The notes under the pieces were generated by a model. It ran no database searches. It saw only the letters and a list, made by a program, of their open reading frames with translations, and was not told the origin of the DNA. 64,000 nucleotides of DNA from Minisyncoccota bacterium (lineage in GTDB: Bacteria > Patescibacteriota > Minisyncoccia > Phycocordibacterales > UBA9973), in the NCBI GenBank assembly GCA_036405895.1, contig DASWWS010000001.1, positions 6,523-70,522 of the forward strand, read 5' to 3'. The position numbers and the translations under genes are program-made. Every line of letters starts with the position of its first letter. The first letter of the stretch is position 1. Below, piece by piece: positions 56,726 to 61,038 of this stretch.

Positions 56726-57568
56726 AGCCGGACCAAATGAGTATTGCAGAAACAACAGCAACATATTTCTCGGCATAGCCCTGACAATTTGTCGCCTGGG
56801 CCGCCGAGAAATCGGCGGCTTTTCTGTGAGAATCAAATGGATACGGTTATTTGATAAAAACAATCCTGTCCTTCCGTGGCATTTCTCTGAGTAAGAGAAG
56901 AGCGCAACTTCCCAACTGATAAGGTAGGAAGCGGTGCTGCTGCAGGTAGGAAGAGACAGAGCCGTCCAATAGAAAACATCACTTCGAGCGGTCGAAGGAT
57001 GGCGGACGTTAAAATAACCTCTCAATTGTTATGAATTGAGAGGAACATGATTTCTAGATTTCCTAATAGGAAATAAGAGCATATGGTGGATGCCTAGGTT
57101 CTACATGGCGATGAAAGACGCGAGTGGCGGCGATACGCTTCGGTGAGGTGCCTCTAACCTTTGACCCGGAGATTTCTGAATGGGGAAACCCAATAGAGCA
57201 AACCTCTATTACTGACGACCGTAAGAGTTGTCGGAGCGCACCCCGGGAAGTGAAACATCTCAGTACCGGGAGGAAAAGAAAACAATGCAGCGTAGCTGCG
57301 ATATTCCCCAAGTAGCGGCGAGCGAAAAGGGAGGAGCCCAAACCGGTTTCTTCGGAAACCGGGGTTGTAGGATAGAAACGTCGTTTTACGAGAAGAGTTA
57401 CAAAGTGTTTGTATAGAAGAAGTTGTTGGAAACCAACGTCATAGCGGGTGATAGCCCCGTATTCGAAATACAGATACCTCTTTTGTTTCTACTCCTGAGT
57501 ACTTCAAGACACGAATAGCTTGGAGGAATCTGCCGGAACTAACCGGTAAGGCTAAATACATTGTAGAA

Positions 57569-57613
<45 letters not shown>

Positions 57614-58187
57614 GAGAGGGGAGTGAAATAGTACTGAAACCATATGCTTACAAGGAGTCGGAGCGGGTATTTATATCCGTCACGGCGTGCCTATTGAAGA
57701 ATGAGCCAACGAGTTCATAAGTGCGGCTCGGCTAAGGAATAAAGTTCCGGAGCCAGAGGGAAACCAAGTGTTAATAGCGCGTAATTGGTCGTACTTATGA
57801 GACCCGAAGCCAGGTGAGCTACCCATGAGCAGGATGAAGTGCGCAGAGATGCGCATGGAGGTCCGAACCGGTAAGTCGTACAACGCTTTCGGATGACTTG
57901 TGGGTTGGAGTGAAAAGCTAATCGAACCTGGTAATAGCTGGTTCTCTCCGAAATAGCTTTAGGGTTAGCGTATCGTGTTCCCCTTGGGGGTAGAGCACTG
58001 GAAGGTTTCGACAGGGAGCAATCTCGCGACGCCTATCAAACTCCGAATACCAAGGATTAAAAACGATGCAGTTAGACTACGGGGGCTAAGCTCCGTCAGT
58101 CAAAAGGGAAACAGCCCAGATCTCTAAATAAGGTCCCTAAATTCATGCTAAGTGCGTCTTAAGGAGGTAAGATTTCTCAGACAATGA

Positions 58188-58219
<32 letters not shown>

Positions 58220-58299
58220 GAAAGCGTAACAGCTCACTCATCAAGAGATCTCGCGCCGCAGATAATCGGGGCTAAGCATGGTACCGAATTTGAGGGCTC

Positions 58300-58524
58300 G
58301 CGAACTTCATAAAGGAAGAAAGTTTCTTCTTTATGATGTTTCGAGGAGTGCTAAAAACCGTCAATCAAAGTAAAAGAGTTGGAACCTTAAAAAAGTTGTC
58401 GACTCCTGTTTAAATTCATCTCACTTAAGAAGAATGTTTAAATAACTCTGAACGATGGATGCACTCTTCGAAATCCAATAGAGGAAGATACACAAAAAAT
58501 ATCTTCCTTCTTTTATGAAGTTCG
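58300..58524 (+). other. Helix-45-type intervening sequence (extended AT-rich stem-loop) in 23S
   Basis: Inserted after GTACCGAATTTGAGGGCTCG. Terminal complementary arms CGAACTTCATAAAGGAAGAA...TTCTTCCTTCTTTTATGAAGTTCG. No group I P7 signature. Confidence 0.5.
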
Positions 58525-59269
58525 GGAGCGGTAGGAGAGTATTCCACTCTTGCTGTGAAGCCAAAGGCGTGAGCCATGGTGGAGCGTGTGGAAGTAAGAA
58601 TGTTGGCACAAGTAACCGCAAGCAAGGTGAGATCCCTTGCCGCCGAAAAACTAAGGTTTCCTGGGCAATGACGATCATCCCAGGGTTAGTCGGGTCCTAA
58701 GGTAATGGCGAAAGCCGCAGCCGATGGACAGTGGGTTAATATTCCCACACTTCTGTAATATTCGATGGAGTGACGAAGGATAGTAGCGTGAGCCGGTTAT
58801 TGGATTCCGGTGGGCATATCGAAGGTGGGGCGCAGGTAAATCCGTGCCCCTAGCTTAAATGCTGAACTAACAGGTACGACCCGATAGCTGGTACGCCAGC
58901 GGTAAGTCACGTGAGCATGCTTCCGAGAAAAGCTTCTAAGATTAGTATTATAGAACCCGTACCGTAAACCGACACAGGTAGTTAGGTCGAGTAGACCAAG
59001 GCGAACGAGTGAGAGATCCCCAAGGAACTCGGCAAACAAGCAGCCGTAACTTCGGAATAAGGCTTCCCCCCATAATGGTGGATTTAATGTATTTATATGT
59101 TGAATTCACCATTATGGGGGGCGCAGCGAAAGATTTCCTGGCAACTGTTTATCAAAAACACAGCTCCCTGCGAACTCGTAAGAGTATGTATAGGGGGTGA
59201 CACCTGACCAATGCCAGAAGGTTAATTACGGGTGGTGCGATTATATCAAGCTGACCTGTACAAGCCCTG

Positions 59270-59304
<35 letters not shown>

Positions 59305-59305
59305 T

Positions 59306-59514
59306 CTGGGTTTTTCTTTTCGGAGAAGAACCTAGAACGGACTAGGACCGCGTATAGAAAACGATAAACAATTAAATACAATAATCATTTACATTTCAAG
59401 CTACCTACCATGTCGTAATACATGGATAGTCCATTGTGATTAACGAGAGACCAACGTCACAGACCCGAACTTCGCAAGGAGAGGGTTAAGAGAGAGTCCA
59501 ACTGAGAGGAATAG
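59306..59514 (+). other. Putative small group I intron in 23S at the site equivalent to E. coli ~1931
   Basis: Interrupts GGTCCTAAGGT | ... | (T)TGAGCGAAATTCCTTGTCGGG. Has P7-like GGACTA / ATAGTCC pairing, ends in G, and contains no ORF. Confidence 0.5.
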
Positions 59515-59824
59515 TTGAGCGAAATTCCTTGTCGGGTAAGTTCCGACGCGCACGAATGGTGTAATGACTGGGAAGCTGTCTCGGGGATTTGCTCGGTGAA
59601 AATACAATACCGGTGAAGATGCCGGTTACCTGCAGTTAGACGAAAAGACCCCGGAAGCTTTACTATAGTTTGGTATTGGGTATGTTTGTGTAATACGTAG
59701 CATAGGAAGGAGACTTTGAAGCGCCGATTTCGGTCCGCGTGGAGTCGTCAGTGAAATACTTCTTTTTACATGGGCATACTCTAACAACAGCGGAAAAAAC
59801 GCCGTTGGACAGTGCCTGATTGGT

Positions 59825-59865
<41 letters not shown>

Positions 59866-60118
59866 GTTCAAAGGTCAGCTAGGCGCGAATGGAAACCGTG
59901 CCGATAGTGCAATGGCATAAGCTGGCTTGACTGTAAGGGGGCCATCCCGAGCAGGTGCGAAAGCAGAACATAGTGAACCGACAATTCGCATTAGATGCGG
60001 TTGAAGATTAACGGATAGAAGCTACTCCGGGGATAACAGGCTAGTTCCGCCTAAGAGTTCATATCGACGGCGGAGTTCGGCACCTCGATGTCGGCTCACC
60101 TTATCCCGGGGCTGGAGA

Positions 60119-60151
<33 letters not shown>

Positions 60152-60180
60152 AAGGTACGCGAGCTGGGTTCAGACCGTCC

Positions 60181-60593
60181 TGTAATGAAATAGATTTATC
60201 TAGATCATTGCAGGACCCGTCTGAATCCCGAGGAAATTTTTGTTCATTTTTTACAATAAAATGAACAGCAGAATAATTCTGTTTTAGTCTTTTCGTTTAA
60301 AATGTATACAAGTGATCCTGCAATTTCACTTGTATATAAAAGATATAGTTTGTTCGTGCTAAGGCTTAGAACAAACAAAGTGAGAACCATCTTATTACGG
60401 CGGTCTTCAGTGGCGACATTGAATGACATGCTCAACTAATATCGGTAAAACCCACAATAGAAATTATTGGGGGCAATACCGAGGGAAGGGTAGTAATACC
60501 CACCCGTAGAGACTACACGTTGAGGTGCTCGCAATTTACTTTGCTGAGTACAAGATATAGTCCGTTCCATACAGTAATGTGTGAAAAGAAGCG
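60181..60593 (+). other. Putative group I intron in 23S at the site equivalent to E. coli ~2593-2595 (peptidyl-transferase region)
   Basis: Interrupts GGGTTCAGACCGTCC | ... | TAAGACAGGTTGGTC. Contains GTAGAGACTAC and the hallmark ACAAGATATAGTCCG (compare Tetrahymena AAGAUAUAGUCGGACC). Ends in G. No homing endonuclease ORF. Confidence 0.6.
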
Positions 60594-60733
60594 TAAGACA
60601 GGTTGGTCTCCTATCTACTGCAGGCGTTGATATTTGAGGAAATTCGCTCCTAGTACGAGAGGACCGGAGTGAACGAACCTCTGGTGTACGGGCTCTAGCG
60701 CCAGCTGGACCGCCCGGTAGCTATGTTCGGAAT

Positions 60734-60766
<33 letters not shown>

Positions 60767-60925
60767 AGTTCCAAGATTAGATATCGTTTGAGGGCCGTGA
60801 GAGATGATCACGTTGATAGGCACTAAGTGGAAGCGTAGTAATATGTTGAGCTGAGGTGTACTAATTGCCCGATTCCTATTAGGAAATCTGGAAATCATAC
60901 AGAAATAATTTGTTCGAGTCCACTG

Positions 60926-61038
60926 TCTTGGTGGTTTGTCGCAGGGGTCACACCTCTTCCCATTCCGACCAGAGAAGTTAAGACCTGTAGAACCGATGAT
61001 ACTCAGTTTTCTGGGGAAAGTAGGTAGCTGCCAGGACT
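60926..61038 (+). rRNA. rrf: 5S ribosomal RNA
   Basis: CCGACCAGAGAAGTTAAGACCTGTAGAACCGATGATACTCAG matches the 5S loop B/C consensus. About 113 nt. A terminator follows at 61061-61090. Confidence 0.85.

Follow-up and report, generated by a model that had tools for sequence, protein, structure and literature searches.

A probable group I intron without an open reading frame at position 2593 of a Patescibacteria 23S rRNA gene, and its candidate two-part recognition of the 5′ exon

We analyzed a 64,000-nucleotide (nt) stretch of a Minisyncoccota genome (GenBank assembly GCA_036405895.1, contig DASWWS010000001.1, positions 6,523 to 70,522; hereafter the window), in which an Rfam scan located a 23S rRNA gene at 57063–60884 and, downstream of it, a 5S rRNA gene at 60927–61036. 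Coordinates are those of the window and, unless stated otherwise, of its plus strand. The 23S gene matches the model RF02541 at 2370.6 bits, and at 3822 nt it exceeds the 2925 positions of that model by about 900 nt. Relative to E. coli 23S rRNA it is expanded at three places by large inserts: at helix 45, about 215 extra nt inside a region of about 270 nt (about 58296–58567); exactly after U1931, 213 nt (59305–59517); and after U2593 in helix 93, 413 nt (60179–60591). The last of these, which very probably is a group I intron lacking an open reading frame (ORF), is our main subject. Its host is a bacterium of the Patescibacteria/candidate phyla radiation (CPR), class Minisyncoccia; a Minisyncoccia metagenome-assembled genome (MAG; locus L106) matches the window at about 91% identity across 6 kb, a span that takes in the flanking gene. 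The exons are 98.6–100% identical between the two loci, compared with 87.6% for the flanking protein gene, and the 23S gene thus appears to be functional and under selection. No 16S rRNA or tRNA gene was found in the whole 64 kb (57 kb upstream and 3 kb downstream of the 23S and 5S genes), which indicates that the rRNA genes are unlinked.

A first-pass annotation, made from the sequence alone, had reported an insert of about 410 nt in the peptidyl-transferase region near E. coli positions 2593–2595. BLAST comparison with E. coli 23S rRNA bears out the interruption and its region and places the site exactly after U2593 (site L2593). We mapped the inserts from BLAST pieces in place of a global MAFFT alignment, which misplaced the 3′ end; these pieces equate window positions 59518–60182 with E. 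coli 1932–2597 and 60592–60758 with 2594–2760. Because E. coli GGGUUUAGAACGU begins at 2581, U60178 corresponds to U2593. Just one junction leaves U as the last base of the 5′ exon and G as the last base of the intron while also restoring helix 93: the 5′ exon runs through GACCGU to 60178, the intron occupies 60179–60591, and the 3′ exon begins with CGUAAGACAGG at 60592. The last 13 nt of the 5′ exon (GGGUUCAGACCGU, 60166–60178) equal E. coli 2581–2593, and the first bases of the 3′ exon (CGUAA, 60592–60596) equal 2594–2598. Once joined, they rebuild helix 93 as ACCGUC-GUAA-GAC(A)GGU, in which a GNRA loop caps the stem and the bulged A is the equivalent of A2602. Uninterrupted 23S genes at other fetched loci read GGGTTCAGACCGT-CGTGAGACAGGTTGG and GGGTTCAAACCGT-CGTAAGACAGGTTGG, and the GGGTTCAGACCGTCGTGAGACAGGTTGG and GGGTTCAAACCGTCGTAAGACAGGTTGG found in such genes agree with the predicted ligated product. 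Alignment of the exons to E. coli shows that the limits first proposed for the insert, 60181–60593, were shifted 2 nt to the right. The insert does end in an omega-G, as had been proposed, at 60591; owing to the shift, the residue originally given that role is exon G2595. The first-pass junction, between GUCC and UAAG, was rejected, as it breaks the C2594–G2599 pair of helix 93 and leaves the intron without a preceding U.

In a permissive scan of the region, the Rfam group I intron model RF00028 matched 60381–60584 at 42.4 bits (E = 1.4e-9). The first-pass annotation had put forward a scan with this model as a check; the match falls under the gathering score of 50 and goes unreported at default settings, so that such a check would by itself have come out negative. 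Because it lies just below the curated threshold, assignment to group I rests on homologues and on covariation. To collect homologues, we scanned a genome collection with the pattern GATATAGTC-N(10-40)-CGTRAGACAG, which returned matches in at least 120 species, mostly Patescibacteria/CPR with some Omnitrophota and others; loci L002–L121 were used. One match (L047) lies in a MAG labelled Promethearchaeota. Inserts occupy the same site in 89 of 120 genome loci, with ACGT immediately before them and CGTRAGACAG immediately after; all but one of the 89 (88) end in G. Their sizes (233–781 nt) are bimodal: those of 233–582 nt leave no room for a gene, and 33 of about 690–781 nt contain open frames of 122–218 amino acids (aa), the one tested of which (L024, 151 aa) matched LAGLIDADG_1 at 6.6e-8. 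Seven same-site homologues reach or exceed the RF00028 gathering score (L109, 58.5; L049, 55.9; L106, 52.2; L073 and L062, 51.7 each; L112, 50.4; L034, 50.3). The nearest relatives of the window intron are the copies in L106 (80.5% identity over the full length), L112 (76%), and L073.

Covariation was assessed on an alignment of 30 family members that runs from the guide, described below, to the 3′ exon. RNAalifold, run unguided on this alignment, recovered P10, P2, P4, P5, P6, P7, P8, and P9. Once P3 is included as a pseudoknot, the share of paired cells is 93.4%, compared with 33–43% when partners are slid by 1–3 columns, and 34 of the 49 core pairs display compensatory change; none of 500 shuffles reached the observed values. 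In the window's own row, 48 of the 49 pairs form. P7 shows no variation in any of the 30 sequences, which is how a guanosine site would behave. Between the window and L106 the junctions within the intron are 100% conserved and the P5, P6, and P9 stems differ by compensatory changes. The fold z-score is −9.9. The same-site homologues and the covarying core together uphold the initial call of a group I intron, and we hold with high confidence that 60179–60591 is an ORF-less intron of this class inserted after U2593, in helix 93 at the peptidyl-transferase center of a CPR 23S gene.

The core can be followed element by element. P2 (60405–60412/60417–60424) is capped by a GCGA loop of the GNRA type and has compensatory changes at all 8 pairs; P3 (CUCAAC, 60431–60436, with GUUGAG, 60519–60524) forms the pseudoknot with P7 and has them at 6 of 6. 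Within the P4–P6 domain (60442–60505), P4 (60442–60447/60477–60482) is bordered by A-rich J4/5 and J5/4, P5 spans 60451–60459/60465–60473 (60451–60453/60471–60473 among the tabulated window helix coordinates), and P6/P6a (60483–60490/60499–60505; P6 alone, 60483–60485/60503–60505) closes on a GUAA loop, again GNRA. J6/7, the P7 5′ strand (together GUAGA-GACUA), and the P3 3′ strand follow at 60506–60524, with P7 formed by 60511–60515 and 60558–60562. P8 (GUGCUC, 60525–60530, with GAGUAC, 60546–60551; whole element 60525–60551) leads into J8/7 (ACAAGA) and the P7 3′ strand UAGUC (60558–60562), which together make up 60552–60562. The two motifs initially singled out as catalytic hallmarks fall where they should: ACAAGATATAGTCCG, at 60551–60565, comprises J8/7 and the P7 3′ strand, and its upstream partner GTAGAGACTAC, at 60506–60516, comprises J6/7 and the P7 5′ strand. 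The remainder, 60566–60591, contains a candidate P9.0 (UUC, 60566–60568, probably pairing with GAA, 60588–60590), P9 (60569–60573/60578–60582; GUAA loop of the GNRA type, compensatory changes at 5 of 5 pairs), and the 3′ tail GAAAAGAA, after which comes the omega-G. The elements of the guanosine site, G-A-GACUA (60508–60515), UAGUC-C (60558–60563), and the J8/7 sequence ACAAGAUA, are invariant in all 30 sequences; G-A-GACUA and UAGUC-C match, at sequence level, the G-binding-site pattern of Tetrahymena, in which a G-C pair comes after a bulged A. P8 of the window intron contains, within 60531–60545, an 11-nt extension (GCAAUUUACUUUGCU) that has no counterpart in L106 or L112, where the element reads GUGCUC-GCAA-GAGUAC. 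The extension is itself folded as a paired stem, and it may be part of the cause of the roughly 10-bit lower RF00028 score relative to L106.

The internal guide sequence does not adjoin the 5′ splice site; it lies 216 nt away, at 60395–60405, and consists of UUACG (60395–60399), which forms P10, and GCGGUC (60400–60405), which forms P1. In P1, GCGG(UC) pairs with exon (GA)CCGU (60173–60178), giving 6 bp in the window with a U60178·G60400 wobble at the splice site. In P10, UUACG pairs with CGUAA at 60592–60596 (60396–60399/60592–60595 in the tabulated coordinates), and this helix tracks position 2597 of the host exon: hosts with CGUGAG carry UCACG (29 cases) and hosts with CGUAAG carry UUACG (7 cases). 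A distal (U/C)ACG-GCGG guide is present in all members of the window intron's family. P1 extends past 4 bp in only some lineages, with no systematic covariation with the exon across the family; across families, hosts with GAACGU carry the guide GCGUUC.

The 216 nt between the 5′ splice site and the guide (60179–60394) constitute a strongly conserved, structured insert. Its start folds together with the end of the exon, such that 60166–60228 forms a 26-bp hairpin in which the bases of exon 2581–2589 pair with intron 60220–60228. This intron segment, a′ (UCUGAAUCC), faces exon GGGUUCAGA (60166–60174). Hairpin c (60179–60214; 60179–60194 with 60199–60214) extends the exon/a′ helix across the splice site, and the linker ACCCG (60215–60219) lies opposite exon CCGU, with A60215 facing U60178 and C60216 facing G60177. 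Among relatives, a G at exon position −6 (2588) is matched by C in a′ in all 31 cases and an A by U in all 15; a C at position −8 (2586) is matched by G in all 39 cases and a U by A in 5 of 7, where the two exceptions are script mis-picks of an internal site. The first four pairs of hairpin c likewise covary, reading CCUG/CAGG, CGAG/CUCG, CUAG/CUAG, or CCAG/CUGG, and the family linkers (ACAG, ACCG, ACGG, ACCCG, ACCAA) are always 4–5 nt long, start with AC, and usually leave one defect opposite C2591 (C60176). Because both the exon-intron and the intron-intron parts covary, the exon/a′ helix is evidently under selection. It overlaps P1 and would therefore either represent an alternative, closed state or have its upstream 9 bp stacked, much as in a pseudoknot, under a 4-bp P1. 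Most likely it is a second 5′-exon-binding site, with a function that we propose from covariation. The long hairpin as the sole P1 was considered and rejected, since it places an A opposite the splice-site U and provides no P10, whereas the distal UYACG-GCGG guide supplies the U·G pair together with a covarying P10. Both the distal guide and the pairing of the 5′ hairpin with the exon escaped the first-pass annotation. In the literature we searched, an incomplete library, we found no description of the distal guide or of the exon-binding hairpin.

The rest of the insert, the L1 periphery (60229–60394), contains hairpins at 60241–60267, 60268–60282, 60303–60338, and 60348–60376. Conserved single-stranded blocks (UUUUAGUCUUUUCGU, AAAGAUA, and GAACCAUCUUAU) separate the hairpins, one of which has the loop CUGCAA, and the peripheral stems covary in L112, L073, L049, and L055. 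Our structural analysis of this region recovered the local hairpins and one invariant UCUUUU/AAAAGA pairing; in a single-sequence fold the 3′ tail instead takes part in an alternative pairing, UCUUUUC/GAAAAGA. The AT-rich stretch 60209–60328 is 93–100% identical to L106, more conserved than the flanking protein gene and than the intron's own P5, P6, and P9 stems, which argues that the periphery is constrained RNA and not decaying coding sequence.

Consistent with this, and with the original annotation, the intron has no homing-endonuclease gene. Its only sizeable ORF, 63 aa on the minus strand (60244–60435), exists as had been described, and we rejected it as coding because it is not conserved in L106; it has no Pfam match. 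No intron ORF (63 aa or less) matched Pfam, in a search for which the L024 ORF served as a positive control, and tblastn with the longest frames of the 33 longest same-site introns detected no endonuclease remnant (best E = 0.009, over 20 aa). Lacking such a gene, the intron is presumably without autonomous mobility. It is most likely vertically inherited, and would derive from an endonuclease-carrying relative with an ORF in P6.

The intron would leave the precursor rRNA through two transesterification steps of the standard kind. In the first, a free guanosine occupying P7 would attack after U60178, held in P1 by GCGGUC; the terminal G60591 would then take over the G site while P10 aligns the 3′ exon, and ligation of the exons would restore helix 93. 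The second helix could either stack under the short P1 or alternate with it, the closed state being the one that sets an A opposite the splice-site U.

Several observations weigh against this account. The intron's own RF00028 score is below the gathering threshold, and a default-threshold Rfam scan of the whole window reported only the 23S and 5S genes and no intron. GCGG is invariant in the family; P1 proper is 4 bp family-wide, and its bases never vary and hence offer no within-family covariation. The 5′ hairpin is more stable than P1 and competes with it, and there the splice-site U is opposite A60215 and not a G. Splicing in this organism, and above all self-splicing without protein, is a prediction from sequence, and any role of the 216-nt L1 insert is putative. 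Part of this evidence could be accommodated by a decayed group I intron that no longer self-splices, either depending on a host or other trans-acting protein (maturase) or residing in a crippled rRNA gene. The subthreshold score, the 11-nt insertion in P8 relative to L106, the absence of an intron-encoded protein, and the burial of the splice site in a stable hairpin with a U-A apposition would all fit. We nonetheless regard decay as unlikely: the window copy keeps every invariant core position of the 30-sequence family and forms all but one of its core pairs, the extra nucleotides of P8 form a stem of their own, and the excess of exon over flanking-gene identity to L106 indicates that the gene is under selection.

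Much less plausible is that the insert is an intervening sequence (IVS) that RNase III excises at the long 5′ hairpin, the ends staying unjoined and the 23S rRNA fragmented. A 26-bp hairpin does stand at the 5′ junction, the same gene bears what looks like a typical IVS at helix 45, and CPR 23S genes are known to carry IVS-like inserts at RNase III sites (Tsurumaki et al., 2024, PMC11270868). However, the site is helix 93, not helix 25 or 45, and an RNase III substrate would have no need of a complete, covarying group I core with guides matched to both exons. Retention as an expansion segment in the mature ribosome, an alternative named in the first-pass annotation and for which we have nothing specific, can practically be dismissed, for the insert would break helix 93 within its stem, beside A2602 of the peptidyl-transferase center, and it combines a ribozyme core with an omega-G and P1/P10 at a site where inserts range from 233 to 781 nt and some encode endonucleases. 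A group I intron that is removed by splicing thus remains the reading we favor.

The neighboring insert after U1931 has a related organization. Like the L2593 intron it follows a U and ends in G, and it contains AGAGACCA and, further on, AAGAGAGAGUCC, the signature of J6/7-P7 and J8/7-P7, although it produced no RF00028 match at E ≤ 10. A survey of six genome loci together with a metagenome scan yielded 101 L1931 inserts with the same core, comprising 56 of 185–256 nt (55 unique), 13 of 283–469 nt, and 32 of about 600–711 nt. Sampled members of the two longer classes have a full P4–P6, and the sampled inserts of about 600–711 nt additionally have an open frame of LAGLIDADG size. In an alignment of 53 of the mini-inserts, 93.4% of cells are paired, compared with 34–41% in slid controls, and 27 of 46 pairs are compensatory. 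At the 5′ end they repeat the module of the L2593 intron: hairpin c stands at the splice site, the linker starts with A, and an exon-binding strand pairs intron UAGGACCG with exon CGGUCCUA in a helix that covaries with the host exon. Next in the 5′-to-3′ order come a new long-range helix, x/x′ (GGACU/AGUCC, GGAUU/AAUCC, or UGACU/AGUCA), which lies next to P3, and the guide, GCU-ACCU, which provides P10 and a 4-bp P1 with an A opposite the splice-site U. The guide is followed by P2 (GNRA loop), P3, P7, P8, and a P9-like hairpin that ends at the omega-G. The 5′ strands of P3 and P7 lie only about 5 nt apart, and RNAalifold found no conserved helix in the AT-rich 40–60 nt upstream of the guide; the mini-inserts therefore have no P4-P5-P6 domain.

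On this evidence, the L1931 insert is a candidate minimal group-I-like intron, belonging to a family with at least 55 unique members in CPR genomes and metagenomes. We found no published description of mini-introns at L1931 or lacking P4–P6, or of the extended exon pairing, in a partial library that does not prove novelty. The L1931 mini-intron looks more novel than the L2593 intron itself, and, if catalytically active, an intron without P4–P6 would matter more. For the L2593 intron we raise the tentative possibility, which we consider somewhat less probable than its opposite, that it belongs to a CPR lineage with a two-part recognition of the 5′ exon, in which a short P1 formed by a distal guide is combined with a coevolving L1 helix to 9 upstream exon bases, acting as a toggle or a coaxial clamp; taken with the same module in an insert that lacks P4–P6, this would point to an undescribed minimal design of group I-type ribozyme. 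The 5′ architecture is a naturally occurring model for studying how such a ribozyme, its P1 only 4 bp long, can hold and present its substrate in a folding rRNA.

The third large insert, at helix 45, resembles an IVS of the RNase III type. Its extra sequence corresponds to about E. coli 1162–1219, and the region is closed by a long stem, CGAACUUCAUAAAGGAAGAA with UUCCUUCUUUUAUGAAGUUCG. Identity to the L106 copy is only 64%, against about 99% for the exons. A smaller insert, 52 nt at 57341–57392, follows about E. coli position 270 in domain I. For annotation, the 23S gene should be treated as intact and read with the three large inserts taken out.

Among loci L002–L121, at least three structurally distinct intron families occupy L2593 in bacteria. 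Family A has AAAUUACAUU-GCGUUC in GAACGU hosts, includes Thermosynechococcus, and has many copies long enough for an endonuclease gene; family B has CAAAUUG-GCGGC and a short L1; and family C, the type found in the window, has the exon-binding hairpin and the distal guide.

The closest published counterparts are the introns catalogued in CPR 23S genes by Tsurumaki et al. (2024, PMC11270868). In that survey, 82% of CPR 23S genes have inserts, the group I model matches 45% of the inserts in 23S, and 348 CPR 23S genes together contained 222 group I introns of the ORF-less class; the insertion hot-spots include 1917, 1931, 1952, 2593, 2604, and 2657. The same paper cites Brown et al. (2015) for the removal of CPR rRNA inserts from transcripts, a point we take from that citation. 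The window intron shares with this set its host group, gene, hot-spot (2593), and ORF-less class, as well as the co-occurrence of a helix-45 IVS and other inserts, and it is accordingly a fresh example of an already catalogued type. The catalogue classed inserts by Rfam model (PMC11270868), and the window copy, scoring below the gathering threshold of RF00028, could for that reason be filed there as uncharacterized. The default Rfam threshold misses it, and surveys that rely on this threshold would thus undercount group I introns in CPR bacteria.

L2593 is also the classical I-CreI/Cr.LSU site of the Chlamydomonas chloroplast. Introns at this position with LAGLIDADG genes occur in the cyanobacteria Synechococcus C9, S. 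lividus C1, and Thermosynechococcus (Haugen et al., 2007, PMC1995217). The cyanobacterial and chloroplast introns share with ours the site after U2593, the 3′ exon CGUGAGACAG, the omega-G, and P1/P10 guides. They differ in being about 745 nt long with a homing-endonuclease gene and P7.1/P7.2, and in that their short P1 immediately adjoins the splice site (AAAUCAUU-GCGUUC, as seen in L037), where the window guide is 216 nt downstream. With the P3 3′ strand ending at 60524 and P8 beginning at 60525, the window intron has no room for P7.1/P7.2 and therefore does not belong to the cyanobacterial/chloroplast type. Endonuclease-carrying members of the window intron's own structural family, such as L024, L083, L014, and L069, possess the same 5′ exon-binding hairpin, distal CACGGCGG guide, and P2–P9 core, but their P6 accommodates an open frame of about 150–160 aa in place of the 23-nt hairpin found in the window.

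For the competition between P1 and the 5′ hairpin, the nearest parallel lies in the Tetrahymena pre-rRNA, where Woodson and co-workers are said to have described an alternative pairing of P(−1) and P1, the competitor there reportedly being formed by exon sequence alone. In both systems the 5′ exon bases of P1 can be sequestered in a competing hairpin. Unlike P(−1), the competitor in the window intron is encoded by the intron, is conserved throughout its family, and tracks changes in the host exon.

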